Part shown: in pieces, positions 273 through 20,642 of the stretch
Layout of the letters: each line of letters starts with the position of its first letter
Position numbering within the stretch: position 1 is the stretch's first letter
UHGV virus genome: UHGV-1636268
DNA: 22,365 nucleotides
Direction: 5' to 3' (one strand)
Source of the DNA: a virus
Program-made: the position numbers and the translations under genes
The notes under the pieces: generated by a model
Told to the model about the DNA's origin: nothing
The model's database searches: none
What the model saw: the letters and a program-made list of their open reading frames with translations, nothing else

Positions 273-1058
273 TTAGTTCTTTGCGTCTAAGAAGGTAAGT
301 TCTGGTGAAGAGAAGATTAACTCAATATCCTCATCAGTTCTTGCATAGATATAAGCATCTGCATCACTGCCAAATGTTACTGCAATTCTGTGATTGCTCT
401 TCGACAGGTGGGTAACTAGAGCGTTACTTAGAGACATCTTTTCAACCGGAGGGTTACTTTGATGTATCTTACCTTTTCTTCGTCTGAAGAGGGTAACTGC
501 GTTATCTGTGAACACAACTACACCTGCAAAGTATTCTGGTTCACAGTAGTTTTTCCAACCTGAGTGTAACTCATTATACATTTTTGCTTCATAGACATAC
601 AGATAAACATCTACACTCTTCATCACCTGATTAATGATAACTGTGACAGCTTGAGGGTCAAGTCCACCGATACCTGCACCAATCATAGGTAGACCAACTT
701 TCTTCAACTGGTTAACTTCACAGTATCTGTTAAGCTGTTTCAAGGATGACTCTAAAGCACTGTATCGGGCATCTTTACCAGTATGAAGTTGGGTGTAAAG
801 GTTAGCTATACGGCCTTGTTTTAAACGTGCTACAGAGAAATTACCTAGTAAATTTTCACAGGGTTTGTGACGAATGCCACCTGCAAACAGGTAAACTTCT
901 GTGTCAGTATCATACACTTTTGGATAACGCTTAGAAATAGTTGCTGCAATACCTGCACCCATGAAATTCATACAGTTGCAACCATGACCAATGATATCAA
1001 ATTTGCCTTTATCAAATGCGTCAAAGATATCACCTTTGATGATTTTTACAATACCCAT
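273..1058 (-). CDS. Macro-domain protein (ADP-ribose binding/processing family) with ~100-aa C-terminal extension of unknown function
   Basis: N-terminal GDIFDAFDKGKFDIIGHGCNCMNFMGAGIAATI fits the macro-domain pattern GDIT...DxIVNxxN...GxGVxxAI. Start trimmed to ATG at 1058..1056 (GGGAGAG SD 8 nt upstream), which overlaps the upstream stop as TAATG; the track's 1073 start is a TTG extension. Confidence 0.65.
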   Translation of the reverse strand: MGIVKIIKGDIFDAFDKGKFDIIGHGCNCMNFMGAGIAATISKRYPKVYDTDTEVYLFAGGIRHKPCENLLGNFSVARLKQGRIANLYTQLHTGKDARYSALESSLKQLNRYCEVNQLKKVGLPMIGAGIGGLDPQAVTVIINQVMKSVDVYLYVYEAKMYNELHSGWKNYCEPEYFAGVVVFTDNAVTLFRRRKGKIHQSNPPVEKMSLSNALVTHLSKSNHRIAVTFGSDADAYIYARTDEDIELIFSSPELTFLDAKN

Positions 1059-1258
1059 TAACATCTCTCCCAAGATTCTTTATCTTCTGAAGGTTTTACA
1101 CGTTGCCCTTCGTGGTCTACCCAGATACACCCACAACCTTCACAGATTACTGGCATTGCATAACCAGCTTTAAAGTCATCTTCAGTGATAAGACCTTCTA
1201 AGTCACCTGTATCACGTCCGAACATTTCGATAGAACAGTCTTTACAGAAGTCAGCCAT
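1058..1258 (-). CDS. Small Cys-rich protein (CxxC ... CxGCxC), putative zinc-binding
   Basis: 66-aa ORF with ATG start; cysteines at 5, 8, 39, 42, 44; stop overlaps the macro-domain start (TAATG). Confidence 0.5.
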   Translation of the reverse strand: MADFCKDCSIEMFGRDTGDLEGLITEDDFKAGYAMPVICEGCGCIWVDHEGQRVKPSEDKESWERC

Positions 1259-1272
1259 ATAATATATATACC

Positions 1273-1500
1273 TTATAGTTCAGTTTCTCGTAATTCTTTA
1301 CCTTCATCATAGAAGCATTTATAGAATGTGTCTATAGAGATTCTGGCAAAGGTGAGGTCTTCAAAGTATTCCTCTGGAGTTGTCCATGTAAAACTAAAAC
1401 TGTCGAGGCTGTAAAATGGTATCACTGTGTCGTGACTCACGAAAACACATGCTGACGTGACTTCTCCAGTATCTTTGTCAATTACCTCTAGAGCTTTCAT
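1273..1500 (-). CDS. Hypothetical protein (75 aa)
   Basis: ATG-initiated ORF in the same-strand gene array; no recognisable motif. Confidence 0.4.
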   Translation of the reverse strand: MKALEVIDKDTGEVTSACVFVSHDTVIPFYSLDSFSFTWTTPEEYFEDLTFARISIDTFYKCFYDEGKELRETEL

Positions 1501-1803: not shown

Positions 1804-2073
1804 TTACTTCCTCGTTTTAAGAACTGCTAAGATTTCTTTAGAGTCTGGTAAGAACCATGTGTAGTGATTCTCTTTGATTTCTGGATGAGTGTCAACCTTT
1901 ATTTTGCACTCTTTACCAACATGCTTAAGTTGTGCTGTGACACCTTGCATAAAGATATGGCACATCACATTATCCATAATGGTTGGTGAGAAATCAACCC
2001 GCATATAAGTTTCTTTTGGTCGTGGTAGCAGTAAGTACCCTTCTACATAGAAAGTATCTTCGTTCTCTGTCAT
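1804..2073 (-). CDS. Hypothetical protein (89 aa)
   Basis: ATG at 2073..2071 overlaps the upstream stop as ATGA; no recognisable motif. Confidence 0.45.
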   Translation of the reverse strand: MTENEDTFYVEGYLLLPRPKETYMRVDFSPTIMDNVMCHIFMQGVTAQLKHVGKECKIKVDTHPEIKENHYTWFLPDSKEILAVLKTRK

Positions 2074-2339
2074 TGCTGCTTATTCCCTAATAAAATCATG
2101 TCAATAAGGTTATTAGCTTTGATTGTACACTGGTAAAATCCGTCACGGTAGAACTCAAGTGCTGCTGCTACATCACTACCTGTGTTGCCTTTGATAATAT
2201 ACCGTGATTCTTCTTGGGTGTACTTATCACTCTCACTTACTTGGGAGTTTTTGAATGTACTGCTCACTTTGTTCGTTGAACACCCTGACATAGTTATCAG
2301 TAACACAAACATTATAAAACTCTGGCTTAGTTTTTTCAT
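2070..2339 (-). CDS. Putative outer-membrane lipoprotein, candidate o-spanin (start embedded in the upstream gene, different frame)
   Basis: N-terminus MKKLSQSFIMFVLLITMSGC has a signal peptide and lipobox-like MSGC. The first 107 nt lie inside the 2233..2580 ORF in another frame. Not proline-rich, so the call is tentative. Confidence 0.4.
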   Translation of the reverse strand: MKKLSQSFIMFVLLITMSGCSTNKVSSTFKNSQVSESDKYTQEESRYIIKGNTGSDVAAALEFYRDGFYQCTIKANNLIDMILLGNKQQ

Positions 2340-2580
2340 ATGTTAGTACCTCTTTTGTATGCTTATTCTTAGCAAGCACATCTTTCAAATCATTTTTGTA
2401 ATTGGTGCTGAGTGTGGCTAAACCTTCCTGATAAGCATCTTTAGCAACACTTATTAGTTTCTCATTATTTAGCTCAGTTTCAGCAACTTGATAGTCTCTG
2501 TAAGAGTATCCTCCCCAGACACCTGCACCAACTAAGAAAACAATTATGAAAGTAGCTTGACAGAACTCTTTAAATGTCAT
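2233..2580 (-). CDS. Putative type-II membrane protein, candidate i-spanin
   Basis: Single N-terminal hydrophobic helix (ATFIIVFLVGAGVWGGY) followed by a charged, probably helical soluble domain; AGGAGA SD ~8 nt upstream of the ATG; overlaps the downstream lipoprotein ORF. Confidence 0.45.
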   Translation of the reverse strand: MTFKEFCQATFIIVFLVGAGVWGGYSYRDYQVAETELNNEKLISVAKDAYQEGLATLSTNYKNDLKDVLAKNKHTKEVLTYEKTKPEFYNVCVTDNYVRVFNEQSEQYIQKLPSK

Positions 2581-2599
2581 TTAACAATCTCCTAAAATG

Positions 2600-2620
2600 A
2601 AAAAGGCTCCCGAAGGAGCC
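2600..2620 (-). terminator. Rho-independent terminator (GGCTCC-cgaa-GGAGCC hairpin + T5 on minus strand)
   Basis: Perfect 6-bp GC-rich stem 2605-2610/2615-2620 with CGAA loop; plus-strand A-run 2600-2604 gives TTTTT 3' of the hairpin on the minus strand; 13 nt after the stop at 2633. Confidence 0.6.
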
Positions 2621-2632
2621 TGTATCTTAACC

Positions 2633-3097
2633 TTAACCGAGGACTTTAGCAAGGATATTCGCAGCCATCGAAGAAGCTTTTGCAGCAGCAGCTACCCCAG
2701 CTTTGATAGCGTTATCCTTGATAGCAGATACCGTTGCAGCATCAGTAAAGAGATAAGTAGTTGTTTTAGAACCACTTGTAAAGGAAAGCATAAGAGCAGT
2801 TTCCAGATTGAAAGAGCGATACGGAGCACCTTCTTTAACGATACCTTCAGCACCTAATTCTGAGGCCATCCCCATATCATAGATAGTCATCAGGTTTTCT
2901 TTGTGTGCAGTCGTTGAACCAGAACCTTTGACGTGTTTCTTAACATTCAAAAGAGCACGATACTCTCGGATGTTGCCGTCTGCTTTTACATTGACAGCAC
3001 GGAAGATTTTACCCTCAAAGTTGTTCTTGATAATGTTACGAACTACTTCAGATTTGTTTGCCGTAACGTCCAGTGCTACCGTAATGATATTGTTCAT
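2633..3097 (-). CDS. Hypothetical protein (154 aa), Ala/Gly/Ser/Thr-rich
   Basis: ATG start with GAGAGA SD; followed directly by a strong terminator; no recognisable catalytic motif. Confidence 0.55.
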   Translation of the reverse strand: MNNIITVALDVTANKSEVVRNIIKNNFEGKIFRAVNVKADGNIREYRALLNVKKHVKGSGSTTAHKENLMTIYDMGMASELGAEGIVKEGAPYRSFNLETALMLSFTSGSKTTTYLFTDAATVSAIKDNAIKAGVAAAAKASSMAANILAKVLG

Positions 3098-3107
3098 AAG
3101 TTTTCTC

Positions 3108-3803
3108 TCAATGTTTAACTAACATGGTTTTGATGTGTGGAAGGATTCTGTTCACCTTCTGCACATTCTTCTCTGTATCTTCTATAAAACATACTATATT
3201 AAAGTAAGGAAGAATGCAAGACTGAATCATCCTCACTTTCAAACTTTCTGCACTTATAGAGTTAGTTCCAAAACCACGCATAAAAAGCAAGTAATCATGC
3301 TCTATATTGTGCCTTAAAAACATCTCAGTAGGTATTCTCTGAGATTCACCTCTCGCTGTCAAGAGTCCAACAGCAGCATGATTAGCAATTGCATCAATGA
3401 TATTGAAAACATACGTTGGTTTTGCTCTTACAGAGTCAAGAAGATTAGTGTACTGTGAAAATGACCCATCAGTCAACTCCGTTGAACAATCTTCGTGATT
3501 AAAATTTGTAAGAACACCATCGATGTCTGCTAAGATGAGATTCCCTTTTTCTACAAGGTCTTTATTGACTATGACTAAGCTATCACGACTTACACCTACA
3601 GTTTGTCCAGTCTCTTTGTCCACAACGCTCACAATTGGTTCTGATGTGTGGAACTCTTCAAGTGAACATACAACTTCTCTTGCAGTATCTTCAAAATCCC
3701 TGCACTGTTCTGGAGTCCATGCGCAGGAATCAAGACCTAACTCATGAGGGTGTAAGTCGTAAGCATGGCACAGTACTTCATCAGACTTTCTTAATTTTTT
3801 CAT
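3108..3803 (-). CDS. HAD-superfamily phosphatase-like protein, possibly a 5'(3')-nucleotidase, with ~80-aa N-terminal extension
   Basis: LILADIDGVLTN matches HAD motif I (hhhhDxDG); LLTAR and FIEDTEKN are consistent with motifs II and IV. ATG at 3803; overlaps the upstream gene end by 23 nt, so the true start may be downstream. Confidence 0.5.
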   Translation of the reverse strand: MKKLRKSDEVLCHAYDLHPHELGLDSCAWTPEQCRDFEDTAREVVCSLEEFHTSEPIVSVVDKETGQTVGVSRDSLVIVNKDLVEKGNLILADIDGVLTNFNHEDCSTELTDGSFSQYTNLLDSVRAKPTYVFNIIDAIANHAAVGLLTARGESQRIPTEMFLRHNIEHDYLLFMRGFGTNSISAESLKVRMIQSCILPYFNIVCFIEDTEKNVQKVNRILPHIKTMLVKH

Positions 3804-4329
3804 GGTTTACCTTAGAAATATTTGTTGCAAATTCACATTGAGCAATAACTTTCATGTTGTTATAGACATCTTGAGAATATTTCTTAGCTTTAGGGATTCT
3901 GTACGAATACCCAGCATTATATGATGCTAAAACTTTTTGTAAAGTATTCTTTGACTTTGGCTGACCATGCACCTTTGTCCAAAACTCAAGCTCTTTGTGA
4001 GTTTCCTTAGCAGCATAATCAAAGTCTTTTAAGAGTTTCTTTTTAGCCACATTAGGACTAATTTTGTTACGCTTTACAACAGTCTTCAAGTGATTCTGGA
4101 AAATACCATAGTCATGGGTCTTTTTATTCTCTACCTTCAGACCTAACTCTGACTCTTGTAAGGCTATAGCAGCTAGAGTGATACCCCAACCTTTACCCAT
4201 ATTATTCTCACCATACTGGTAAGCTTTTAACATGTTTACTTTTTGGCTAATTGATAGCTCTGGGCAGTCAACTGCATAAGATAAGTGTGCTGTAAACATT
4301 AAGCACAAACCTAGAATCAATTTCTTCAT
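3781..4329 (-). CDS. Secreted soluble lytic transglycosylase (SLT-domain) protein
   Basis: N-terminal signal peptide MKKLILGLCLMFTAHLSYA; SLT family-1 motifs in order: QESELG (catalytic E-S), DYGIFQ (GLMQ-like), ASYNAGYS (AYNxG). Confidence 0.6.
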   Translation of the reverse strand: MKKLILGLCLMFTAHLSYAVDCPELSISQKVNMLKAYQYGENNMGKGWGITLAAIALQESELGLKVENKKTHDYGIFQNHLKTVVKRNKISPNVAKKKLLKDFDYAAKETHKELEFWTKVHGQPKSKNTLQKVLASYNAGYSYRIPKAKKYSQDVYNNMKVIAQCEFATNISKVNHEKIKKV

Positions 4330-4390: not shown

Positions 4391-4412
4391 AAAAAAGGCC
4401 GCCGAAGCAGCC
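4391..4412 (-). terminator. Rho-independent terminator (GGCCGC-cgaa-GCAGCC hairpin flanked by A6/T4 runs)
   Basis: Stem 4397-4402/4407-4412 (5 pairs, 1 mismatch) with CGAA loop; A-run 4391-4396 gives TTTTTT on the minus strand; 17 nt after the rIIB stop. Flanking A/T runs could allow bidirectional function. Confidence 0.55.
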
Positions 4413-4429
4413 TTTTAAGAAATTACTTA

Positions 4430-5539
4430 TTAGATTTCACGTTTACGTTGAGAGATGAGTTCCCCAGCAGTACCAACGATGACATGCAAAGCTTCAGTCT
4501 TACCATCCCATGCTTTCAGAACTTTACGTTGATTATCAACGATTGCTGCAACTTCATAACGGGATGAACGCATCTTCATATCGTTGTAATCAGTCGGAAC
4601 AGATACAACATCTCGTGGATGGACACGAACCTTCAGAATTGTATCCCCTGAGAAGCAACGAACATAATCCCAAGCACCAACATGAAGACCTTGAGAGCAA
4701 GTCACGTTACGGTTATTATCAACCATCCAACGTGGCATTTCTACAATGTTACCCAAATCATTAGGTACTCTGTAGGTGTGGGAGTCAACCAGCTTGCCTT
4801 CACGAGTAGATACTTTCTTCCAACCAATGATGTAGCCTTCTTCATCAATTTCAACATCAAGGTGAGATACAAATCCCCAAAGTTGTTCTACAGAGTCTTT
4901 AGATGGGTTTTCCATCAGTTTTTCGAAGAACATTACAAGACGTTCAAAACCTTTATCACCAGTCTTCATCATGTGAAGAATACGGTCAACCAGAGTAGAA
5001 CGCATCTCAACAGCACCATAGAATAGCTTGTCACCTTTGATTGTGATAGCACCCTGAGTGAAGTTTTCGATAGACTTACGAATGTTCATTAGTTCAAATG
5101 CTTTCTTGAACTCGCCTTTCACAACGTGAACTACAATTTCTTGATAGTTCGGATGAGTAGACTCAACAATTTCAGATTCTGAACCGTAAGTCATAATTAC
5201 AGAGTCACCAGTAATCATGTACTCAATCTTGCCATCTTTCTGCATAGCTTCGTGCAGTTTATTTACTGGAGCTTTCTGTACAGCCTCTTTAACAACCTTT
5301 TTAACTGGCTTGTCAGCTTTCTTTTTAACTGATTTAGCAACTTGCTTCAAAGTCTTCGTAGCTGGTTTAGAAGTCACCTTCTTATTCCCTTTTAAGGTTG
5401 CTTCATGACGCTCTACAGCACGACCGACTGAACGGGTTGAGGTGTTAAATTTCTGTGCAATAGCGGTTTTAGTCAGCTTGCCCTCTTTAACCAGTTTGTA
5501 AATTTCTGCGTCAATCTGTGCTTTAGTTTTAGTAGTCAT
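4430..5539 (-). CDS. rIIB: RIIB-like protein
   Basis: Immediately downstream of the rIIA-like gene; size (369 aa) and segments such as CSQGLHVGAW and HPRDVVSVPTDYNDMKMRSSRYEV resemble T4 RIIB as recalled from memory; not checked by alignment. Confidence 0.65.
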   Translation of the reverse strand: MTTKTKAQIDAEIYKLVKEGKLTKTAIAQKFNTSTRSVGRAVERHEATLKGNKKVTSKPATKTLKQVAKSVKKKADKPVKKVVKEAVQKAPVNKLHEAMQKDGKIEYMITGDSVIMTYGSESEIVESTHPNYQEIVVHVVKGEFKKAFELMNIRKSIENFTQGAITIKGDKLFYGAVEMRSTLVDRILHMMKTGDKGFERLVMFFEKLMENPSKDSVEQLWGFVSHLDVEIDEEGYIIGWKKVSTREGKLVDSHTYRVPNDLGNIVEMPRWMVDNNRNVTCSQGLHVGAWDYVRCFSGDTILKVRVHPRDVVSVPTDYNDMKMRSSRYEVAAIVDNQRKVLKAWDGKTEALHVIVGTAGELISQRKREI

Positions 5540-5588
5540 CTTATTACTCTCTCTTGTTAGTTAATAAATCATTTTGTGATGCTATTTT

Positions 5589-5608
5589 AAGGGGCTTTGA
5601 AGCCCCTT
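5589..5608 (-). other. Stable hairpin between rIIA and rIIB (AAGGGGC-tttgaa-GCCCCTT) with no T-run
   Basis: 7-bp stem 5589-5595/5602-5608; the sequence 3' of it on the minus strand is AAAATAGC, so it is not a canonical terminator. Possible RNA processing or stability element, or partial attenuator. Confidence 0.3.
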
Positions 5609-5618
5609 GTCAAACACT

Positions 5619-7985
5619 TTAATCATAAATTGTAGTCCCTTCTGGAACACATTTTACATCAAAGCCTAAGAACTTACTCACTTCGATGGGTGACACTTTA
5701 TTCCAATCTAAATGAGAAAGCAAGAAGTTTTCTTGTTTTCTTTTTGAAAGGTAGTTTGTCACCTTAATGACCATACGGTCACCAGCTTTCTTAATTTTCT
5801 TGTAAAGCTTTGTATCATTGTCAAGACAGTCTTTCAAAGTTTTCAATACACTAATAGTATAAGTGTATGCAAATGGTGCAGCAACGTATTGGATTTTACC
5901 GAACATTGCCTCTACAGCATCTTCATTTCCTTCTAGGAAGATAGTTTTGTTTGTATCCCGTGAATAGCAATAGCCACGAGAAATCTTCCTGTTATTGAAT
6001 GTAAAGTTTCTGGCAATAATCCAGCTACTTGTAAGGTCAAGAACACCATTCATGTAGATGCGTGTCATATACCTGTTATGATTAATCCAATGAACATCAG
6101 TTAAGCTGTCGTTCAAGAGCTTCTCATCTACTTCAATCCAGTCTTCTGGTATCTTTTTCCAATTTGCTTTTCGGAAAACATAGACTGTCTTTCCAATAAC
6201 ATTAGCAACTGACTTAGCTACATCTTCTGGTGATGAGCAAAAACATTCACCATCAACTGTGTCACCAATTGCCTTAATGTAAAGCTGAGGTTCTTCAATT
6301 GTGTCTAAGTCCTCTGACACCTCTTTGTAGGAGGCTACACCTTCTGCTGGAACAGCTTTCCAGAGTTTTACAACACCTCTTACAGCTTCTTTACGCTGGT
6401 AATGGTGTTCCTTATCAGACATTTTCACAATCTTTAACAAGCTTTTATCAAGTTTGTGTAGATTGATTAAATCATCTAACTCTTTTTCAGTCGAGAATAC
6501 AAACACAATCCCATTGTATCTGTGAAACAGACTTGACTCACTGGCGTAGTCTCGACATGCACCACGCAAGATTTGATTGCGACCTACAGTCTTCTCAGTA
6601 CCATTTTTATTGCGACGGTCATTAATCACGAACAAAAACTGTTCAATTTGGCTTTTACGCATTGCGCCAAAGATATTGAACATACTTGCCTCTTGAGTGT
6701 AGGAAAGTGCTGTTGCACGAATCTTACTCTCTAAAGAGTTGAACTTGACATAAGCAACTGGATTATAAAGATAATCTACTTTAGGGATATTGTTCCCGTT
6801 CCTATCAACCTTAATATTACCTTTGCCGTCACGTTCATAAATGACTGAGCCGTCTTCTGCGTAGATAATTCCACGACGAATGTTTAGCAATTCTTCTTCC
6901 AGAGAATCAAGCTTAACGCCACCCCACTCTAGCTTTGGACACACAGCATTAAACATCTCTCGTGAGTTCAAACGTAACTCAGCATAAGCCTGTGCAGCAT
7001 CCATGAGTGTAGGTTGGCTATTAACTTTCTTGATAACATCCTTTGTAATGGCTTCAGTTATCTTTTTAGTAGCCTCAATGATAACATTTTTTGTCGTGTC
7101 ATTCATCTGCAATGCTTCACGAGAAGCTGCAATAGCAACTGAACCAATAGGCATGTAGATGTTTACAAGGTCTACGCTCCTACGGAAAAATTCTGGCAAT
7201 ACTTTGAAGAAATCATCACCAAGTAACGCTTCCATGTTAACAGGGTAGGCAATGTTACCCATCACCACATTAAACTCTGTCCTGTTACCACTAGAACGCC
7301 AGCTTTGCTTATGAATCATGGCATCATAAACACCCTCTTCACGGGCAATGACGTTCATATCTGCTAATACATCGTCGTACACAATATTACTTTCTGGTTT
7401 TACAGCAAAGTATGAGTATACATTACCAGCTTCTTCAAAGAACTTTGAGATACGGTGGTCAGCAACTGCCACACGTACAGCTAAACCATTAGGTTCATTT
7501 GTTTGGTTAGTAGTAAGCTTAGTTACTTGAGGGATACCATTCTCAAGGTAAACAGAGTACTTATTAACAACACCATCAACATAGCTAGATACTGTGAATG
7601 ACTGAGCAATTGCAAACGGTGACTTTGAGCCGATGCCCATTGCACCAATGTAGTCATTAGAGTCATTCTTCGTAGAAGCCCCGTAGTTCAGATACAAACT
7701 CATTACTTTGTCATGGGTTAAACCAGTTCCAAAGTCACGGACTTCAAAGTAAGGCTCAAATCGAGTAGGCAAATGCACATGGAACGGGATGTTTTCTTTT
7801 CCAGCTTCTTTCTGAGCATCTACTGCGTTACATGACAGTTCACGAATCACTGCCCTTTCTTTAAACGTGTATACACCAGAACTCAAAAGGCTGAACATTT
7901 CAGGTGTCATTGTAATCTGTGCTTGAGACGTCTCTAAAGAAGTTGAACTCTTAATCACTTCTGCGTGGTCGTTTACCATGCGCAT
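5619..7985 (-). CDS. rIIA: RIIA-like protein with N-terminal GHKL (histidine-kinase-like) ATPase domain
   Basis: GHKL motifs near the N-terminus: N-box ELSCNAVDA, G1 box VRDFGTGL, G2 box GAMGIGSKS. Size (788 aa) and position next to rIIB match T4 rIIA. Confidence 0.8.
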   Translation of the reverse strand: MRMVNDHAEVIKSSTSLETSQAQITMTPEMFSLLSSGVYTFKERAVIRELSCNAVDAQKEAGKENIPFHVHLPTRFEPYFEVRDFGTGLTHDKVMSLYLNYGASTKNDSNDYIGAMGIGSKSPFAIAQSFTVSSYVDGVVNKYSVYLENGIPQVTKLTTNQTNEPNGLAVRVAVADHRISKFFEEAGNVYSYFAVKPESNIVYDDVLADMNVIAREEGVYDAMIHKQSWRSSGNRTEFNVVMGNIAYPVNMEALLGDDFFKVLPEFFRRSVDLVNIYMPIGSVAIAASREALQMNDTTKNVIIEATKKITEAITKDVIKKVNSQPTLMDAAQAYAELRLNSREMFNAVCPKLEWGGVKLDSLEEELLNIRRGIIYAEDGSVIYERDGKGNIKVDRNGNNIPKVDYLYNPVAYVKFNSLESKIRATALSYTQEASMFNIFGAMRKSQIEQFLFVINDRRNKNGTEKTVGRNQILRGACRDYASESSLFHRYNGIVFVFSTEKELDDLINLHKLDKSLLKIVKMSDKEHHYQRKEAVRGVVKLWKAVPAEGVASYKEVSEDLDTIEEPQLYIKAIGDTVDGECFCSSPEDVAKSVANVIGKTVYVFRKANWKKIPEDWIEVDEKLLNDSLTDVHWINHNRYMTRIYMNGVLDLTSSWIIARNFTFNNRKISRGYCYSRDTNKTIFLEGNEDAVEAMFGKIQYVAAPFAYTYTISVLKTLKDCLDNDTKLYKKIKKAGDRMVIKVTNYLSKRKQENFLLSHLDWNKVSPIEVSKFLGFDVKCVPEGTTIYD

Positions 7986-8013
7986 AATACTTTCCTCTCA
8001 GTTTACTGTTAAA

Positions 8014-8190
8014 TTACTTATTAAACATTTTACCAGAACCACCACACATAGGGCAACATCCTGCCCTTATGTACCCCTCTCCATTACAGTAGTCACATTT
8101 TTTGTGCTCTGCAAAGTACTTACAAAGGAGGTAAACAAATACTGCTACACTACCAAGTGACAGTAAAATTTCTATCCAATATGCTTGCAT
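8014..8190 (-). CDS. Unannotated small ORF (58 aa): membrane-anchored protein with two DnaJ-type CxxCxGxG zinc-finger motifs
   Basis: Translated by hand: MQAYWIEILLSLGSVAVFVYLLCKYFAEHKKCDYCNGEGYIRAGCCPMCGGSGKMFNK. One hydrophobic helix, then CDYCNGEG and CPMCGGSG. ATG at 8190..8188 preceded by GAGGTGA SD; stop TAA at 8016..8014. Below the 60-aa cutoff of the ORF track. Confidence 0.4.
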   Translation of the reverse strand: MQAYWIEILLSLGSVAVFVYLLCKYFAEHKKCDYCNGEGYIRAGCCPMCGGSGKMFNK

Positions 8191-8507
8191 GACTCACCTC
8201 TCATATTCTTGTAAAGGATAAAGCTTCTGTCATGAACGATACTTGTAGATACTGCAAAGTTACTTTCAAGCATCTGTTTGTTTGGATTGTAGAAGCTTTC
8301 TTTAAACTCGTCAAGTGCAAATTGGTGATGTTGTGGAAGACCTTTTACACAAACCTTTATTGTGATTGCTGCTGCAACCTTGCCAGCCAGTTCTTCTTTA
8401 GCTGCTACTAAAATTTTGTTAAGAAACTTATGACCATCTTCATGCTTCTTGATGTTCTCCCAACGTTCTTCTAAGACAATGTTGATGTTCATTTCTTTGA
8501 TTTTCAT
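8172..8507 (-). CDS. Hypothetical protein (111 aa)
   Basis: ATG start with GGAG SD 7 nt upstream, directly after the terminator at 8525-8545; no recognisable motif. Confidence 0.5.
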   Translation of the reverse strand: MKIKEMNINIVLEERWENIKKHEDGHKFLNKILVAAKEELAGKVAAAITIKVCVKGLPQHHQFALDEFKESFYNPNKQMLESNFAVSTSIVHDRSFILYKNMRGESCKHIG

Positions 8508-8524
8508 AGTCTTCTCCAGAAATT

Positions 8525-8545
8525 AAAAAGGCTCCCGTAGGAGCC
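8525..8545 (-). terminator. Rho-independent terminator (GGCTCC-cgta-GGAGCC hairpin + T5)
   Basis: Perfect 6-bp stem 8530-8535/8540-8545; A-run 8525-8529 gives TTTTT on the minus strand; 16 nt after the NAMPT-like gene stop. Confidence 0.6.
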
Positions 8546-8560
8546 TCTTATCATATACTT

Positions 8561-10342
8561 TTAAAGCTGCTTGTCAATATTATTTCGAATATCACCAAGA
8601 GTTGTGTAACCGAACTGCTCAGAGTCGCTAAAGACTAGACGCAAAGCACAAGCTGGGTGTTCAAGTGCATCTGCAAAGCTCTGGAACCCATAGCCATCTA
8701 CAGCTTTCAGATTTTCACAATCCCACATAGGTGCTACACCACCAAAAGCAGACTTCTTAACACCACTATCTGTTTTAGGGTCTTTTGCAAGCATAATCTC
8801 TTTACCACCAATGCTTGCAAGAGTTGCTTTGACAGCAAATGCAAAGGTGTCACGAGTCATGTACTGGTAAGTGTAAGAACCTACACCAAACACTACGTTA
8901 GAGCTTGCAAAACCAATTTCATACAAACGCTTCAGTATTTCGTTTGCACGTTCCAACGTGATAGAGTCGCCATAAATAAGCCCGATATGCTCATCCAGTA
9001 CTTTAAAACCTTTAGAGTTGATAGTTCCTCCAAAGATGTTATACAGTGTCTTAATAGCTCCATCAATCTCCGCTACAGGACGTGTTACAACGTTTGCAGA
9101 GCCGTTGATGTAAGCATCTTTCAGCAACACTGTATCGGCTACTTCAAAGTCTTCTCTGTCAACAACCATTTCGTAGCCTTCTGACAGTAGCCATCCAGCA
9201 ATACCATAGTTAATGTTTTCAAGCTTCATGTTCAGGACAGAGTTCAGCATTGTATCACTTGCCTCTAGCTTGCTTAGGTGCTCGTAATAAGCCTTTTTAG
9301 CACACTCTAAGTGGATTGCTTTGTAACCTGTGACAATATGTACAGGGTCTCCAGAGTCAGGGCGAATTACCAGTTTACCATCACGTTCCATAATTTCTTT
9401 ACGGAGTGCTGGTAAGATTTCTGACACAGTTCTCCAGAAGTTATAAGTATCTGAAACAACACTTGCAATACCAGTTGGGTAAGTTTCTGTTAAGAAACGA
9501 CGGAAGGTTTGTAACTCACCTTTAAAGCGTCTTTCTTCTTCAATCAACTCATTACCACCTTCCCAAGCAATGTTTGCACACATTACAGAGTGCTCAGTGG
9601 CTGGTACAGAGCTACCAATATCAGAGATTGGGTAAGACTGTCCATAGATTCGTTTAGCCGTATACACAGCAGGGAAGCTATCAGTTCCTTTAAAGCTGGT
9701 TAAGTGGCCTACAGCGTTAAATGCGTCATCAGTAAAGCCGGACATACCACGCATAGCAAAGTCATGGCACTGATAAGGTAAATGTAAGTCGTTGTCGCAA
9801 GTAAGGTCAGCCCACTTCTTACAGATGCGTTTATAATGCAATGCAATAGTTGCAATGGTACAAGCCTTCCAAATCTCAGCAGAGAAAGCATCTTCCAGAT
9901 ACCCCGCTACCCAATGGAAACCTGAAACAGTGTTCTGGAAGACAATCATTGGGACACGCATAGGGACAACTGTACCTTCTTCTACCGCGTATACTTCAAC
10001 TGGTAGATAACCTAAGTCGTGAAGTGCTTCCCAATGCTCTCGACCGATAGCATCTTTACCCAGAACACCATTCATGACTTCTAAGATTTCGTCAATTGCT
10101 TCTTTTTTATCACGTTCAAAGAAAGTGGCGTTCCAGTGGTCTATCAAGTAATCTTTAACAAAACGTTGAATACCAAAAGCCACTACACCGTCAATTGCTA
10201 AAGGGCTGTTAAACCATTTGTCACTACGTGGTGTCAGGTTGAACATCAAGTATTCTGTTGCACTAGGGTACTGGTAAACATGGCCAGACTTGTAAGCATC
10301 CGCGTTTAAACCTGCTGGTACTGCATAAAGTGATTTAGTCAT
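8561..10342 (-). CDS. nadV: Nicotinamide phosphoribosyltransferase (NAMPT/NadV) family protein; candidate nicotinamide ADP-ribose transferase (Namat-type) given its Prs-like partner
   Basis: N-terminus NADAYKSGHVYQYP parallels the NAMPT N-terminal signature (human ATDSYKVTHYKQYP, recalled). ATG start verified. At 593 aa it is ~100 aa longer than the ~490-aa canonical enzyme. Lies directly downstream of the Prs-like gene. Confidence 0.8.
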   Translation of the reverse strand: MTKSLYAVPAGLNADAYKSGHVYQYPSATEYLMFNLTPRSDKWFNSPLAIDGVVAFGIQRFVKDYLIDHWNATFFERDKKEAIDEILEVMNGVLGKDAIGREHWEALHDLGYLPVEVYAVEEGTVVPMRVPMIVFQNTVSGFHWVAGYLEDAFSAEIWKACTIATIALHYKRICKKWADLTCDNDLHLPYQCHDFAMRGMSGFTDDAFNAVGHLTSFKGTDSFPAVYTAKRIYGQSYPISDIGSSVPATEHSVMCANIAWEGGNELIEEERRFKGELQTFRRFLTETYPTGIASVVSDTYNFWRTVSEILPALRKEIMERDGKLVIRPDSGDPVHIVTGYKAIHLECAKKAYYEHLSKLEASDTMLNSVLNMKLENINYGIAGWLLSEGYEMVVDREDFEVADTVLLKDAYINGSANVVTRPVAEIDGAIKTLYNIFGGTINSKGFKVLDEHIGLIYGDSITLERANEILKRLYEIGFASSNVVFGVGSYTYQYMTRDTFAFAVKATLASIGGKEIMLAKDPKTDSGVKKSAFGGVAPMWDCENLKAVDGYGFQSFADALEHPACALRLVFSDSEQFGYTTLGDIRNNIDKQL

Positions 10343-10389: not shown

Positions 10390-11271
10390 TCAATCAAGGT
10401 TTGCTACAGTAACTTGACTGTAATGTGTTAAGCCACGGTCTTTAGCTTCGCCTAAAGAGTTTGTAGTGTAAATATGGTCGATACCATTGTCAAGAAGGTT
10501 TTCAACATCTTTAGAGAAGATACCATGTGTTACATAAAGCTCTACACGTTTTGCACCTGCTTCACGTAGGTGTTTAGCTGCCTCTACGAAGGTTCGACCA
10601 CCATCACAGATATCATCAAGAATCATGACGGTTTTATCGGTCAAATCAACATCGTCAAGGATTCGCATACCAGTGATTTCTCCAGTCTTAAGATTTCGCA
10701 CCTTAGACATTGTGATATATGGTTTATCCACCTCTTTAGCAGTCTCTGCAATCTTCTTAGAAGCACCTGCATCTGGGGCTACTAAGTAATCAATCAGAGG
10801 GTCATTTGCGTAATGGACTGCAATCTCCTTTTGAGGAATACTCTGGAAGCAATTGAAAAGGTTATCTGGAACGTAACTATGAGGGTCAACTGCACAGACT
10901 GCATCAAAACCCATTGCATTAACCTGTTGTGCAAACACTTTCAAAGCTGCTGCATCACCTTTAAACATGTGACGGTCGTAACGTGCATTTGGCAAATAGT
11001 AAAAGATAGCAGTCTTCATAGCAAACTTATGAGGTACTAAATCATCAATTGCCTCTTTAGCAAGTGCCACAGCAAATAATGTGTCTTTGTCATAACCCTT
11101 TATAATCATAATCACGTTGTTGATGGATGATGCAGCATAAGCAGTAAAATCAACAAACTCTGGTGAAAAATGTCCACCAATCTCACCAGAAGGAAATTGG
11201 ACGATGTTAAACTCTTCTTCGTGAGTCCCTTTAGTTGGTGAATGAACTGTAACACGGATAGATGTTTTCAT
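10390..11271 (-). CDS. prs: Ribose-phosphate pyrophosphokinase (Prs) family protein; candidate ADP-ribose pyrophosphokinase (Adps-type)
   Basis: Prs-family motifs: YLPNARYDR (cf. E. coli YFGYARQDR), VCAVDPHS (cf. VLTVDLHA), and the PRPP-binding loop VMILDDICDGGRTFVEAAKHLREAGAKRV (cf. [28 protein letters not shown]). Start trimmed to ATG at 11271..11269 (GAGAGA SD); the track's 11286 start is TTG. Confidence 0.8.
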   Translation of the reverse strand: MKTSIRVTVHSPTKGTHEEEFNIVQFPSGEIGGHFSPEFVDFTAYAASSINNVIMIIKGYDKDTLFAVALAKEAIDDLVPHKFAMKTAIFYYLPNARYDRHMFKGDAAALKVFAQQVNAMGFDAVCAVDPHSYVPDNLFNCFQSIPQKEIAVHYANDPLIDYLVAPDAGASKKIAETAKEVDKPYITMSKVRNLKTGEITGMRILDDVDLTDKTVMILDDICDGGRTFVEAAKHLREAGAKRVELYVTHGIFSKDVENLLDNGIDHIYTTNSLGEAKDRGLTHYSQVTVANLD

Positions 11272-11282
11272 AGTTTTGTCTC

Positions 11283-11561
11283 TCAATCAAAGGTTACGTT
11301 TGTTACTGCCATTGCAGATTTGCATTTTACAGGGTCTACAACGTGGTAAAGTACACTACAGTTACCTGTGCTGTCTGGTACAGGTTTTACCCATTGATGC
11401 TTTATAGTTGGCTCTCCTAAGTCTTTGTAAGAACCATCTGTAAAGTTGTTTACCATCTCAAGTGCAATTGGTTCTGGAACATGACCACGTATCATGTACA
11501 TTTCACAACCATTACCACCTTCACTGACTAATGGTAAAATTTCCCACTTCTCTTTAGCCAT
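11283..11561 (-). CDS. Hypothetical protein (92 aa)
   Basis: ATG start; sits directly upstream of the Prs-like gene; no recognisable motif. Confidence 0.45.
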   Translation of the reverse strand: MAKEKWEILPLVSEGGNGCEMYMIRGHVPEPIALEMVNNFTDGSYKDLGEPTIKHQWVKPVPDSTGNCSVLYHVVDPVKCKSAMAVTNVTFD

Positions 11562-12069
11562 TGTAAGTTGCCCTATAAACTGTCTCGAATTTCAACAGGA
11601 GAGATATTGCCAAATCTGTATAGTTATTGTCAAGCACATCTGGCATATTATTTTTGATATATTTCTCTTGCTCTTCGTAGGTCATCTTAGGGATGCTTAG
11701 AAGACTATCACCTTGATTCTGATTATCAAGTTTAGTCTGGATAAACCAGTTTGCACAGTGATGCTCACCACCCTTTGTAACAGGTTTGTGGTGGCCTAAT
11801 GTGAAGGATTGACTACCTGTGTATCTGCAAAGTTTATTGAGCACTGTAATGGTGTTCTTCACAACAAAACATTCATATAGGTTATCTATAGTGTAGTGTG
11901 GGTAATAACGGAATAGTGCTCTTTCACGAGTACTTTCACGATTCCAGAGAATCATGTGATTGGAGTTTGAGGAGTCGTATTGGTGGTAGTCAATGAACTC
12001 TTGACGTTCCTCAAAGCTGAGTCTTAACACTGACATTGCAGCAGAACGTTTCAGATTTGACAGATACAT
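11554..12069 (-). CDS. Hypothetical protein (171 aa) with His/Cys-rich segment GHHKPVTKGGEHHC
   Basis: ATG start with GGAG SD 6 nt upstream, directly after the terminator at 12084-12107; possible metal-binding motif; family not recognised. Confidence 0.5.
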   Translation of the reverse strand: MYLSNLKRSAAMSVLRLSFEERQEFIDYHQYDSSNSNHMILWNRESTRERALFRYYPHYTIDNLYECFVVKNTITVLNKLCRYTGSQSFTLGHHKPVTKGGEHHCANWFIQTKLDNQNQGDSLLSIPKMTYEEQEKYIKNNMPDVLDNNYTDLAISLLLKFETVYRATYNG

Positions 12070-12083
12070 GTTATCTCCAAAAT

Positions 12084-12107
12084 AAAAAGGGAACCTTTAC
12101 AGTTCCC
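12084..12107 (-). terminator. Rho-independent terminator (GGGAAC-7 nt loop-GTTCCC + T5)
   Basis: Perfect 6-bp stem 12089-12094/12102-12107; A-run 12084-12088 gives TTTTT on the minus strand; 14 nt after the stop at 12121. Confidence 0.55.
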
Positions 12108-12120
12108 TTATAGTATCTGC

Positions 12121-12441
12121 TTACTGAGCTACTTTCAAGATTCTTGTGAATGGAATTTCACTTTCTTCCATTAACTCTTTAGTTTCTTTGGTAACTTTCA
12201 CAAAGTTATCTAGGCAGATAATCTTCTTATCTTTCTTGCTATAGGTCAATTTAACCTTTTCAATATCTTTCTCAGAGCTTTTCTCTTCATTGAAGAGTTT
12301 TACAGCCTCTTTGAATGGAAGATATGAGCCATCATTATCACTAATGAATCCTGTACCACAATAGTAGGAGTTATGCTCTCTAGCCATAAACTGGCACAGT
12401 AAGAAAATCTGTAATTTACGAGTGTTATAAACTTTGCTCAT
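12121..12441 (-). CDS. Hypothetical protein (106 aa)
   Basis: ATG-initiated ORF, 2 nt after the upstream stop; no recognisable motif. Confidence 0.5.
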   Translation of the reverse strand: MSKVYNTRKLQIFLLCQFMAREHNSYYCGTGFISDNDGSYLPFKEAVKLFNEEKSSEKDIEKVKLTYSKKDKKIICLDNFVKVTKETKELMEESEIPFTRILKVAQ

Positions 12442-12443
12442 GA

Positions 12444-12710
12444 TTATTTAGCCTTCTTATTACGTTTACGGTTACGAGCTTTCTTAGCTGCTCGTTTAAT
12501 AGCTGCTGCACCAGACGGACGGTGGGATTGTTTCTTACCACCTTTGCCACGGCCTACATAGATGTAAGGCTGCTGTTCAATTTGGCTTGTAAGAACCTGT
12601 GCAACCGCTGAAGCATCTACACCGACCTGCTTTCCAGTCATAGAAACAATTGCTGCTGCTTTTGCCAGTGCCTTCAAGAATCCAGCTTTCATATTACCTA
12701 AAATTCCCAT
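12444..12710 (-). CDS. Small basic protein (88 aa) with Lys/Arg-rich C-terminal tail; possible nucleic-acid-binding or internal virion protein
   Basis: C-terminus RGKGGKKQSHRPSGAAAIKRAAKKARNRKRNKKAK; ATG start with GAGAGAGA SD. Confidence 0.5.
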   Translation of the reverse strand: MGILGNMKAGFLKALAKAAAIVSMTGKQVGVDASAVAQVLTSQIEQQPYIYVGRGKGGKKQSHRPSGAAAIKRAAKKARNRKRNKKAK

Positions 12711-12806
12711 TTTTAGTCTCTCTCATTAAAGTTTAATACAGAACTTATGAAGTTCTTCTTCAGTGATACCAATTGGAGTTATACCTTAGTCCATTTGCCA
12801 GAATAA

Positions 12807-13292
12807 TCACTCTGCTCTCCACTGACAATCACCTTGCCACCCATACTCTTTTCTCCAGAGGTTTTGGTTATCAGAACCACGATATGGTTTAACTGTTGGT
12901 TTAGATGAATCATACTTACCATCAATCACCACGTCAACATATTTCATCACATCAAGGTGAATTTTTTCATGTAACTGAAAACCTGTCCAGAGCCAGATAG
13001 ATTTCTCTGGATAGATTGATTTAACCTTCTGACAAATCTTAGTGACTTCTCCAATGTTACGGTCATCCAATGGTTCTCCACCGAGGATAGACAGCCCACT
13101 TAAAGAGTCATCTTCCAAAAGTCTTAGAATGCCATAAAGGTTTGCATAAGTGAACTCTTTACCAGCATTAAACTTCCAAGACTCCCTGTTAAAGCAGCCT
13201 TCGCAGTGATGCTTACAACCAGCTACGAAGAGGCTTACACGAACCCCTTCACCATTAGCTGTATCAAATGGTCGAATCTCCATGTAATTCAT
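12807..13292 (-). CDS. nrdG: Anaerobic ribonucleotide reductase activating protein (radical SAM)
   Basis: Radical-SAM cysteine triad CKHHCEGC (CxxxCxxC) near the N-terminus; size (161 aa) matches NrdG; anaerobic reductase gene lies upstream in the same strand. Confidence 0.85.
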   Translation of the reverse strand: MNYMEIRPFDTANGEGVRVSLFVAGCKHHCEGCFNRESWKFNAGKEFTYANLYGILRLLEDDSLSGLSILGGEPLDDRNIGEVTKICQKVKSIYPEKSIWLWTGFQLHEKIHLDVMKYVDVVIDGKYDSSKPTVKPYRGSDNQNLWRKEYGWQGDCQWRAE

Positions 13293-13301
13293 CTAGTTAC
13301 C

Positions 13302-13601
13302 TCACCAATACATATAAGTGTTCTGAGCAGCTTTCTTTGGAGACTTGCTATCAATGTCAAAGTCTTCATCTAAGAAGGATGTCTTAGAAAGCTGCCTTAT
13401 TTGTGTTCTTGTAAGACGTTTAGTGGCCTTCTTAATCTCTCTACAAGGCTGGCTTGTAAAGTCGTAAAAGCCACCTTTTCTGGACATCATATCAGAGTGG
13501 TAGTAGACCTCTGAAGCATTTTCTCTGTTACGTACCTCATTTCTCCACTCATAAAATCCATGAACGTTCTTTAAACCTTTTCTTCGAATTGTTTTACTCA
13601 T
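13302..13601 (-). CDS. Hypothetical basic protein (99 aa)
   Basis: ATG at 13601..13599 overlaps the upstream stop as ATGA. Confidence 0.45.
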   Translation of the reverse strand: MSKTIRRKGLKNVHGFYEWRNEVRNRENASEVYYHSDMMSRKGGFYDFTSQPCREIKKATKRLTRTQIRQLSKTSFLDEDFDIDSKSPKKAAQNTYMYW

Positions 13602-13993
13602 TCAAACACCACCTGACAAGGAACCTGTTTAGTAATAAATTCTTCACAGTGCTCTTTAATGAAGTTTTGTAATGGTACACAATCTTGTGCGCAAGTCATT
13701 AGCATAATGTACTCTGGATTCATGATGTTTTCAAGACTGTAGAAGACAATATCGTTAGATAGTTCATGACCGTCTTCTTCAGACCAAGTTCCAGTGACTA
13801 CAGCTAATTTGTCAAGCAATTCATTAGGCAATGCTACACCATCTTCTACAGAATCACTTAGAACATTGTCTCCGATATACAATGTGAAGGTCGTATGGAA
13901 TGTTGAGTATCTTACGTGATTCTTTTCGCAAGAACCACACTCTGAGGCGTAATCTTTAATCCACTCTAACTGTTTTTGGTTTAACTTAATCAT
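13598..13993 (-). CDS. Hypothetical protein (131 aa), Cys-containing
   Basis: ATG at 13993..13991 overlaps the upstream stop as ATGA; contains a CGSCEKNH segment. Confidence 0.5.
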   Translation of the reverse strand: MIKLNQKQLEWIKDYASECGSCEKNHVRYSTFHTTFTLYIGDNVLSDSVEDGVALPNELLDKLAVVTGTWSEEDGHELSNDIVFYSLENIMNPEYIMLMTCAQDCVPLQNFIKEHCEEFITKQVPCQVVFE

Positions 13994-16489: not shown

Positions 16490-16508
16490 TATTGCCCCTT
16501 TACATGCT

Positions 16509-16529
16509 AAAAAGGTCTCCGAAGAGACC
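16509..16529 (-). terminator. Rho-independent terminator (GGTCTC-cgaa-GAGACC hairpin + T5)
   Basis: Perfect 6-bp stem 16514-16519/16524-16529; A-run 16509-16513 gives TTTTT on the minus strand; 9 nt after the stop at 16538. It separates the aerobic and anaerobic reductase gene blocks. Confidence 0.55.
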
Positions 16530-16537
16530 CTTTCATT

Positions 16538-16744
16538 TTAAATCTTTTTAGAAAACTTCGCAAAGAGTTCTCTTAGTTTTTCAGTGATACCTAACTGTAT
16601 CTCTAATATTTCGAAGATAACCCATAGTAACATGGCTCCAAACAATGAACCTTGTTCAAAGTCAGTAAATAGATTAACAATAAGCATACCAATCACAATA
16701 GCTGGTGCATCAACAACAAAACCTTCCCAAATGCGTTTAAGCAT
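16538..16744 (-). CDS. Small hydrophobic protein (68 aa), predicted membrane protein
   Basis: Hydrophobic core AIVIGMLIVNLF...LFGAMLLWVIF; ATG start overlapping the end of the redoxin gene. Confidence 0.4.
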   Translation of the reverse strand: MLKRIWEGFVVDAPAIVIGMLIVNLFTDFEQGSLFGAMLLWVIFEILEIQLGITEKLRELFAKFSKKI

Positions 16745-20596: not shown

Positions 20597-20614
20597 TTTC
20601 GAATCCTACAGATG

Positions 20615-20636: not shown

Positions 20637-20642
20637 CCTAGT

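Follow-up and report, generated by a model that had tools for sequence, protein, structure and literature searches.

Does the position of a pair of NAD genes beside the rII genes of a phage reflect a joint function against host defences, or an inherited gene order? The question is raised by UHGV virus genome UHGV-1636268, a 22,365-nt stretch of viral DNA that we analysed over its full length (hereafter the window), in which a Prs-like/NAMPT-like gene pair lies close to an rIIA-like and an rIIB-like gene, with a macrodomain gene further on. The initial annotation had described this arrangement as a possible counter-defence neighbourhood. We find that the NAD pair is NARP1, consisting of Adps and Namat, that both this pair and the rII pair are orthologous to genes whose knockout exposes a close relative to specific defences, and that their adjacency is best read as a layout inherited within the Ounavirinae.

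The window is a Felixounavirus segment and represents, within a Felix O1-like myovirus, the conserved region of accessory genes, with a DNA identity of 96% to Felixounavirus isolates. Escherichia phage JohannRWettstein (Bas63, MZ501086) matches it at 94% nucleotide identity over 98% of its length, and annotation together with protein comparison pairs window genes one to one with Bas63 genes, at ortholog protein identities of 79-98%. All long open reading frames (ORFs) lie on the minus strand. Pfam and PHROG profiles assigned the main gene families unambiguously and far beyond chance, and the genes named initially are confirmed as present, all on the minus strand: rIIA/rIIB, the NAD pair, the macro gene and the ORFs of 111 and 58 aa, here called p111 and p58 (Table 1).

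The NAD gene pair is NARP1

Adps carries the Pfam domains Pribosyltran and Pribosyl_synth (PF00156/PF14572) and matches PHROG 619 at E 9e-98, while Namat carries NAPRTase (1e-34) and NAMPT_N (PF04095/PF18127) and matches PHROG 448 at E 6e-201. Adps is followed on the same strand by Namat after a gap of 47 nt, the arrangement by which a NARP1 pair is recognised. The two proteins are 79% and 97% identical to the products of Bas63 g79 and g80, respectively, and synteny is conserved. In fact, the discovery of NARP1 was made in Bas63, in genes 79-80, and their deletion renders this phage sensitive to SIR2-HerA (bioRxiv 10.1101/2024.02.11.579819). In the pathway as described, Adps turns ADP-ribose (ADPR), together with ATP, into ADPR-pyrophosphate (ADPR-PP), and Namat exchanges the pyrophosphate for nicotinamide to yield NAD+ (bioRxiv 10.1101/2024.02.11.579819). 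We therefore assign the window pair to NARP1 and predict the same conversion of ADPR via ADPR-PP to NAD+ for its enzymes.

Structural comparison of Namat is in line with this assignment. The closest PDB structure is SPbetaL1 Namat (9W5W/9W5X, E 2e-126), with human NAMPT at 1e-40. In the alignment to 9W5X the catalytic R306 corresponds to window R327 and is conserved, and the two clamp-helix aromatics, which confer ADPR-PP specificity on Namat, are kept as F392 = Y490 and Y396 = Y494 within the motif GSYTYQYMTRD. The variable clamp loop differs from that of SPbetaL1 Namat, with R40 replaced by Lys and a loop longer by 4 residues. We note that the window protein also carries an insertion of ~77 residues (residues ~351-427) between conserved halves and a second, smaller one of ~15 residues (~258-272) relative to SPbetaL1 Namat (491 aa); Namat proteins in the Ounavirinae are 590-610 aa long. 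RyR/RyDEP-domain proteins, which have been described as feeding NARP1 (PMC13232231), were considered as possible partners, and no scanned window ORF matched a RyR domain.

rIIA and rIIB are orthologs of a validated counter-defence pair

The rIIA protein, classed here with the membrane integrity protectors, matches PHROG 612 (RIIA) over its full length at E 8e-189, and rIIB, encoded directly 3' of rIIA, matches PHROG 609 (RIIB) at E 2e-88. They are 98% and 84% identical to the products of Bas63 g84 and g85. The GHKL ATPase character claimed for rIIA stands at the level of motifs: an N-box ELSCNAVD (49-56), DFGTG (84-88) and GAMGIG (114-119) occur in the order and spacing of a Bergerat fold, and no Pfam or PDB sequence match was obtained. 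The BLASTP alignment with T4 rIIA is confined to the ~300 N-terminal residues (306 aa, 32% identity, E 3e-37). A preprint's statement of ">80% homology to T4" for rIIA is therefore not borne out, while membership in the family is secure. Pairing of rIIA with rIIB was also recovered by jackhmmer in phages LNA4 and Se-S.

The function of both pairs in Bas63 has been addressed by knockouts in the PhageMaP study (bioRxiv 10.1101/2024.10.10.617714). There, g79/g80 counter Sir2-HerA, with a knockout loss in efficiency of plating (EOP) of 1e4-1e6, as well as retron Ec86 and hhe, and g84/g85 (rIIA/rIIB) counter QatABCD, with a knockout EOP loss of 1e4-1e5. T-even rIIA/B counter RexAB, and rIIB is also sensed by a CARD-gasdermin defence system. 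The view that both modules are host-defence countermeasures is thus supported by knockouts of orthologs in a phage nearly identical at the nucleotide level. The further point that the gene order differs from that of T4 carries little information, since T4 has no NARP1 beside rII.

A classical annotation of the locus would see no counter-defence at all: the NAD genes would serve auxiliary metabolism in the form of NAD salvage, while rII, lysin and spanins would form a lysis-timing or envelope module. The surroundings invite such a view, with genes for NrdG, NrdD, NrdB, NrdA and a MazG-like protein directly upstream of the block, the lysin-like g86 and the spanins directly downstream of rIIB, and database names such as "lysis inhibitor" and "phosphoribosyltransferase". 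We consider it very improbable. According to the PhageMaP data, the Bas63 orthologs are dispensable on plain hosts, and their knockouts lose 1e4-1e6 EOP on specific defences; the NARP1 route to NAD+ starts from ADPR and bypasses phosphoribosyl pyrophosphate (PRPP) and nicotinamide mononucleotide (NMN) (bioRxiv 10.1101/2024.02.11.579819); and the window Namat has the aromatics of the ADPR-PP selectivity clamp.

Two stretches of the window depart from Bas63 as mosaic patches, at 10700-11300 in the 5' half of Adps and at 4430-4900 in the 3' half of rIIB, with 69-82% DNA identity between flanks of ~96%. As a protein, rIIB is as distant from Bas63 (84%) as from SUSP2 (85%), a phage of another genus. 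The patches suggest that alleles of these two counter-defence genes were exchanged, or that the genes are under diversifying pressure.

NARP1 and rII lie in separate predicted transcription units

A consensus scan of the coding strand for G+C-rich hairpins followed by T-runs places such elements exactly at five gene boundaries, namely after g76, Namat, rIIB, g88 and the macro gene. The hairpins of the window recur at the same boundaries in Bas63 and SUSP2, with an identical stem for the Namat terminator, and Hena2 has hairpins of other sequence at these places. Since Hena2 substitutes different sequences at the same positions, the terminators are likely functional. They delimit four predicted units, namely [g77 g78 Adps Namat], [p111 p58 rIIA rIIB], [g86 Pnk g88] and [spanins ... 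macro], and on their basis we group p111 and p58 with rII, and g77 with NARP1. The Adps start follows the g78 stop at a distance of 11 nt.

This layout refines two positional statements of the initial annotation. The rII genes are indeed near the NAD pair, although not immediately downstream of it, as two small ORFs and a conserved terminator (8549-8526) separate Namat from rIIA. Similarly, the Prs-like gene is present at 10390-11271, just outside the range 4430-10342 in which the neighbourhood had been placed.

The adjacency is probably inherited

The block g77-Adps-Namat-(small ORFs)-rIIA-rIIB-g86-Pnk-g88-spanins-macro is kept in Suspvirus SUSP2 and in Kolesnikvirus Hena2, the latter with identities to the window of 46% for Namat and 35% for rIIA. 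A comparison of synteny, which had been proposed initially as a check, therefore finds the genes not scattered in relatives: the order, and with it the adjacency of NARP1 and rII, holds in the three Ounavirinae genera Felixounavirus, Suspvirus and Kolesnikvirus. Because Ounavirinae genomes are collinear throughout, however, we read this adjacency as inherited.

Phages outside this group give a different picture. In Seunavirus LNA4, a circle of 147.6 kb, NARP1 (44.6-47.8 kb) and rIIB/A (114.1-117.4 kb) are 66 kb apart. In Kuttervirus, Se-G has NARP1 as an indel cassette that Se-S lacks, and the site is ~75 kb from rII. In Justusliebigvirus outra, Aeromonas phage TSW001 and Thalassavirus Quinn, neither annotation nor iterative profile search placed an rII gene within 17-20 kb of NARP1. 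Linkage of NARP1 with rII is absent, then, in all five independent lineages sampled. Since the modules are unlinked there, NARP1 thus appears to be a mobile two-gene cassette that would have landed beside rII once, in the Ounavirinae ancestor. A general or demonstrably selected linkage is not sustained: none of the independent lineages examined has the modules linked, and here they belong to separate predicted transcription units, with genes for lysis and RNA repair interspersed.

With regard to the Kuttervirus indel, the presence/absence difference between Se-G (10545-13814) and Se-S (98430-99344) comprises Adps, Namat and a 56-aa ORF in genomes otherwise 95-99% identical. The Se-G cassette is followed by a 738-aa protein, which was considered as a divergent rIIA and rejected because it has a VWA domain and does not match the rIIA profile.

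We therefore favour, with a probability of roughly 80%, a reading in which the locus carries, on a single strand, several counter-defence modules that are independent of one another and each end at a separate terminator, in an order that was fixed in the Ounavirinae ancestor and does not stem from cooperation between NARP1 and rII. Gene identities, orthology to the knockout-tested Bas63 genes, synteny and terminator conservation carry this reading; what we infer are the extents of the transcription units, what the macro protein does and whether p111 or p58 has a role. In the corresponding mechanism, a host NADase defence (SIR2, TIR and similar) would fire and deplete NAD+, upon which Adps would pyrophosphorylate ADP-ribose and Namat would join nicotinamide to it, rebuilding NAD+ from a unit presumably co-transcribed with g77 and g78. 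Independently, the membrane-associated rIIA and rIIB would keep membrane-targeting systems (RexAB for T4, QatABCD for Bas63) from causing abortive infection, and the macrodomain protein, encoded at the end of the unit that starts with the spanins, would hydrolyse ADP-ribose derivatives.

Several observations weigh against this reading. The transcription units are predicted from consensus scans and from conservation. Three of the four independent validated Bas63 counter units (g77, g79/80 and g84/85) fall inside nine consecutive genes, a grouping somewhat tighter than random placement would give; by permutation, this clustering has a P of ~0.03 among 149 genes to 0.11 among the 70 dispensable genes, which is suggestive at best, and the test is confounded by accessory genes sharing the early region. 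The borders of the NARP1 genes are, moreover, hotspots of accessory-gene insertion, as seen in anti-defence islands. Between g78 and Adps, ESCO49 carries a tandem array of four phrog_29478 paralogs (7384-9107 of its locus), an HNH homing endonuclease gene separates Adps from Namat in pinkbiff and LF110P4, and Bas63 and LF110P4 have a g81-like ORF after the Namat terminator (Bas63 g81 at 8981-9325 of its locus), a slot occupied in Hena2 by a ProQ/FinO-like gene; in the coordinates of their own loci, the inserts lie at 6457-6948 in pinkbiff, and at 4618-4955 and 6808-7319 in LF110P4. Some selection for clustering may thus have acted.

Taken further, these observations would make the locus a selected anti-defence island, in which adjacency is maintained for early co-regulation or joint transfer and p111, p58 and the inserted genes are further counter-defence functions. 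The tight grouping of the Bas63 counter units speaks for this explanation, as do an order maintained over three genera despite protein identities of 35-46%, the function-unassigned genes in the variable slots at the g78/Adps, Adps/Namat and Namat/p111 junctions (e.g., the ESCO49 array), the mosaic, fast-diverging patches in Adps and rIIB, and the occurrence of a counter-defence-family macro gene within 10 kb of rII in three families. We nevertheless regard it as unlikely. The conserved order weighs little in a subfamily that is collinear throughout, the linkage is missing in five of five independent lineages, the two modules have separate terminators, and lysin, spanin, Pnk and Nrd genes are interspersed; p111 and p58, furthermore, yield neither a PADLOC match nor an informative fold, and p58 (g83) was in the PhageMaP library yet is not among the validated hits in the accessible part of that work. 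Of the features expected of an anti-defence island, contiguous validated counters are found here by orthology (g77, g79/80, g84/85) and variable gene content among close relatives is found in the three insertion slots at the NARP1 genes, whereas linkage of the same modules in independent lineages is not.

In sum, "counter-defence neighbourhood" is a fair description for the Ounavirinae, backed by the published Bas63 knockouts, while the co-location itself is only modestly unusual and the counter-defence interpretation is mostly already published.

p58 and p111 as members of the predicted rII unit

The 58-aa ORF had been noted as a zinc-finger protein. This is correct as far as two DnaJ-type CxxCxGxG zinc-knuckle motifs are concerned, which give a weak Pfam DnaJ_CXXCXGXG match, and incomplete in that they follow an N-terminal transmembrane helix. 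The same architecture is conserved immediately upstream of rIIA in all three Ounavirinae genera (including SUSP2 and Hena2) and is not present in T4; LNA4 carries an ORF with two transmembrane helices upstream of rIIA instead. T4 rIIA.1 was rejected as a p58 analogue, being soluble, helical and free of Cys motifs. In turn, p111 is an ORFan whose occurrence is restricted to the lineage of Felix/Susp-like phages, and the Hena2 ORF at its position is at most a very distant homolog. The AlphaFold 2 (AF2) model of p111 (mean predicted local distance difference test score, pLDDT, 74) shows a generic beta-alpha-beta-alpha-beta-beta fold, for which neither PDB nor BFVD offered an informative structural neighbour, and p111 had no Pfam match.

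The initial suggestion that these two ORFs are anti-defence candidates finds no backing, as nothing in the PADLOC, Pfam and fold searches assigns them such a function. In the accessible PhageMaP data, g82 (p111) and g86 are without measurements, whereas the library included g83 (p58) and g95 (macro), neither of which appears among the validated hits in the text (bioRxiv 10.1101/2024.10.10.617714). Our best guess for p58, made with low confidence, is a partner of rII, because it is predicted to be co-transcribed with the membrane-associated rII proteins.

The distal macrodomain protein

The macro gene lies 3.36 kb downstream of the rIIB stop, in agreement with the ~3 kb given initially, and 7.5 kb or ~15 genes downstream of Namat, with three terminators between. 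Its product combines an N-terminal macrodomain of the Tk.4/Adpp family (8-165) with a beta-rich C-terminal domain (~180-266) that is conserved in the Ounavirinae and in two Pectobacterium phages. Placing it in a counter-defence theme is reasonable for a member of a family with two experimentally established counter-defence roles. Adpp of Vibrio phage Gary removes the phosphate from ADPR-1''P, the product of aRES, and so makes it usable for NARP1 (bioRxiv 10.64898/2026.01.28.702374), and knockout of T4 Tk.4 (AdfM) sensitises T4 to DarTG2 (HIDEN-SEQ, bioRxiv 10.1101/2025.11.20.689424).

A first possibility is a split version of NARP1-AP, the Adps-Adpp-Namat operon of Gary, in which the distal macro protein would act as Adpp in trans and convert the aRES product ADPR-1P to ADPR for Adps and Namat. 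A hidden Markov model (HMM) built from the 13 operon-encoded Adpp sequences of Table S1 (bioRxiv 10.64898/2026.01.28.702374) matches the window protein with 110.6 bits (E 8e-33) over profile positions 2-152 of 154. Identity to the JG004 and phiAbaA1 Adpp is 30-31% (E 2e-21 and 9e-19). The His mutated in Gary Adpp (H24A) is conserved, an IGHGCNC motif is present, and a Gln occupies the position of the catalytic Lys of TARG1 and DarG, as in all Adpp. Iterative search, in addition, connects the protein to Quinn gp175, encoded between Adps and Namat, and Escherichia and Salmonella genomes contain aRES. Because Table S1 of the Adpp paper lists no Escherichia or Salmonella phage and no Felixounavirus (bioRxiv 10.64898/2026.01.28.702374), a distal homolog such as this one would have gone uncounted in that survey.

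The same profile, however, matches T4 Tk.4/AdfM, from a phage lacking NARP1, equally well (102.9 bits). The window gene is located neither within nor beside the NARP1 operon, the position by which Adpp genes are defined, but in another predicted unit, and its product has the additional C-terminal domain. The macro gene is also present in T4 and Kuttervirus Se-S, which lack NARP1, and 73 kb separate it from NARP1 in LNA4.

A second possibility is an AdfM-like anti-DarT function, independent of NARP1, in which the protein would remove ADP-ribose from DarT-modified phage DNA. Its identity to T4 Tk.4 is 34% over 160 aa (81 bits, E 1.6e-23), as close as to any Adpp, and the family is present in phages without NARP1. 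PADLOC returned a DarG macrodomain match at 5e-15, and the AF2 model (pLDDT 83) has TARG1 and DarG as its closest solved folds, with Foldseek TM-scores of 0.83 for TARG1, 0.77 for DarG and 0.74 for Poa1p. The DarG match is not discriminating, since genuine Adpp proteins score the same, and Foldseek likewise did not discriminate within the TARG1/DarG/Poa1p macrodomain class. Replacement of the TARG1/DarG catalytic Lys by Gln speaks against this function, and the role of Tk.4 is known from a knockout, not from biochemical activity.

Our attempt at telling Adpp from anti-DarT proteins by profile score, catalytic residue and fold worked against bacterial DarG and TARG1 and failed with T4 Tk.4. As Tk.4/AdfM and Adpp match one profile, homology cannot assign the role of the window protein: judged from their sequences, Adpp, AdfM and the window macro protein are one family, and either role or both may apply here. 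The two functions are not mutually exclusive, and we give each the same chance, somewhat below an even one. Hydrolysis of ADP-ribose derivatives is the activity we infer for the protein in general terms. We note that neither aRES nor DarTG is among the defence systems named in the accessible PhageMaP text and data (bioRxiv 10.1101/2024.10.10.617714).

A macro gene of the Tk.4/Adpp family lies 3.4-9.4 kb from rII on the same strand in Ounavirinae, Vequintavirinae and Ackermannviridae, for example at 121149-121655 in LNA4 (rIIA at 115376-117388) and at 9606-10247 in Se-S (rIIB at 19619-21271).

Features of the window and neighbouring genes

Table 1. Genes and predicted regulatory elements of the window, listed in the direction of transcription.
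Feature	Coordinates	Strand	Bas63 ortholog	Description
Terminator-like hairpin + T-run	12087-12109	-		Upstream of g77; predicted 5' boundary of NARP1 unit
g77 ortholog	11554-12069	-	g77	171 aa; 96% identical to Bas63 g77
g78 ortholog	11283-11561	-	g78	92 aa; phrog_4726; 98% identical to Bas63 g78
Adps	10390-11271	-	g79	Prs-like; ATG at 11271; Pfam + PHROG 619
Namat	8561-10342	-	g80	593 aa; NAMPT-like; Pfam + PHROG 448
Promoter-like TTGACA-16-TATGAT	8577-8550	-		11/12 consensus match; precedes Namat terminator hairpin
Terminator hairpin	8526-8549	-		Directly after Namat; predicted boundary of NARP1 and rII units
p111	8172-8507	-	g82	111 aa
p58	8014-8190	-	g83	58 aa
rIIA	5619-7985	-	g84	788 aa; PHROG 612
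rIIB	4430-5539	-	g85	369 aa; PHROG 609
Terminator hairpin	4393-4416	-		After rIIB; predicted end of rII unit
T4 Vs.1-like protein	3781-4329	-	g86	SLT/lysin-like
Pnk-like	3108-3803	-	g87	Polynucleotide kinase-like; phrog_3970 at 4e-134
g88 ortholog	2633-3097	-	g88	No assigned function
Terminator hairpin	2621-2604	-		After g88
i-spanin + o-spanin pair	2070-2580	-	g89/g90	PHROG Rz-like spanin + Bas63 annotation
Macro protein	273-1073	-	g95	Two domains; Pfam Macro 5.5e-07
Terminator hairpin	243-202	-		After macro

Two further Bas63 counters are described in the PhageMaP data (bioRxiv 10.1101/2024.10.10.617714): g77, which counters retron Ec67 with a knockout loss of ~10-fold, and g130, which counters ppl. 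The GIY-YIG domain annotated for g77 was not recovered in the window ortholog by Pfam or PHROG, the only match being a weak one to a PHROG HNH family.

The g86 ortholog shares 32% identity with T4 Vs.1 (E 4e-16) and has a weak Pfam SLT match; PF01464 and the name "Lysin" are found in its distant relatives. In T4 (vs.1 at 4727-5272 of the locus), a Vs.1-like gene is two genes away from tk.4, and in TSW001 (2514-3729) such a gene is directly beside the macro gene. The idea that g86 encodes an NAD/ADPR-linked enzyme, raised by its macro neighbour in TSW001, was rejected in favour of a T4 Vs.1-like SLT/lysin protein, and the "RegB" label on the TSW001 gene is an apparent misannotation.

Bas63 g81 has no counterpart in the window. 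Conversely, window 1273-1500, a 75-aa ORF (phrog_13034), has no DNA or protein match in Bas63, where an ORF of equal length (228 bp) sits in its place; it appears to be a same-size, non-homologous cassette replacement. The window NrdD gene (14345-16489, 714 aa) is unsplit, whereas that of Bas63 (15317-18203 of its locus) is annotated as a two-piece join around the homing-endonuclease gene bas63_0068. Finally, positions 105794-128941 of GenBank GU169904.1, a 147-kb record named "Staphylococcus phage SA1", contain the entire window at 93.7% identity; from this match, the record seems to be an assembly, chimeric or contaminated, with Felixounavirus sequence in it.

Implications

The annotation of this region should read NARP1 (Adps/Namat) plus counter-defence rIIA/B, replacing the names "ribose-phosphate pyrophosphokinase", "nicotinamide phosphoribosyltransferase" and "lysis inhibitor". 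Three points are new, each of them modest: the NARP1-rII adjacency is specific to the Ounavirinae and not to be taken as functional coupling; Adpp (anti-aRES) and AdfM (anti-DarT) form one family, so that roles of phage macro proteins are unassignable by homology, and Felixounaviruses carry a distal two-domain member missed by published surveys; and p58 and p111, by their placement in the predicted rII transcription unit, are a concrete candidate pair for rII cofactors. For phage therapy with Felix O1-like phages, the region predicts resistance to NAD-depleting and Qat-type defences.

Beyond the preferred reading of independent modules, we put forward two ideas tentatively, rating them as rather doubtful: that a split NARP1-AP beats aRES by means of the distal macro protein, and that p58, perhaps with p111, is a lineage-specific rII cofactor. 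Were the first true, the published figure of 15% of NARP1 phages with Adpp would be an undercount.

Comparison with known systems

The window locus shares with Bas63 NARP1 an orthologous Adps-Namat pair at a matching genomic position and with matching flanking genes and terminator. It differs in the 5' half of Adps, which is a diverged allele (69-80% nucleotide identity vs ~96% in the flanks), and in the slot after the Namat terminator, where Bas63 has g81 and the window does not. Similarly, rIIB diverges from the Bas63 allele in its 3' half.

Compared with T4 rII, the window shares adjacent rIIA and rIIB genes on one strand in that order, and a homologous GHKL-like N-terminal domain in rIIA. 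The alignment is restricted to this N-terminal part, however, and the upstream partners differ, being the soluble rIIA.1 in T4 and p111 plus the membrane zinc-knuckle protein p58 in the window.

With the Gary NARP1-AP operon, the window has in common a macrodomain of the same family with the conserved His and the presence of NARP1 in the same genome. In contrast to Gary, its macro gene is outside the NARP1 operon in a separate predicted unit, and the protein has an additional beta-rich C-terminal domain of ~100 aa. The likeness to T4 Tk.4/AdfM, in turn, extends across the macrodomain (34% identity, same motifs) and includes a nearby Vs.1-like gene, whereas T4 is without NARP1 and Tk.4 is a stand-alone protein of 155 aa without the C-terminal domain.

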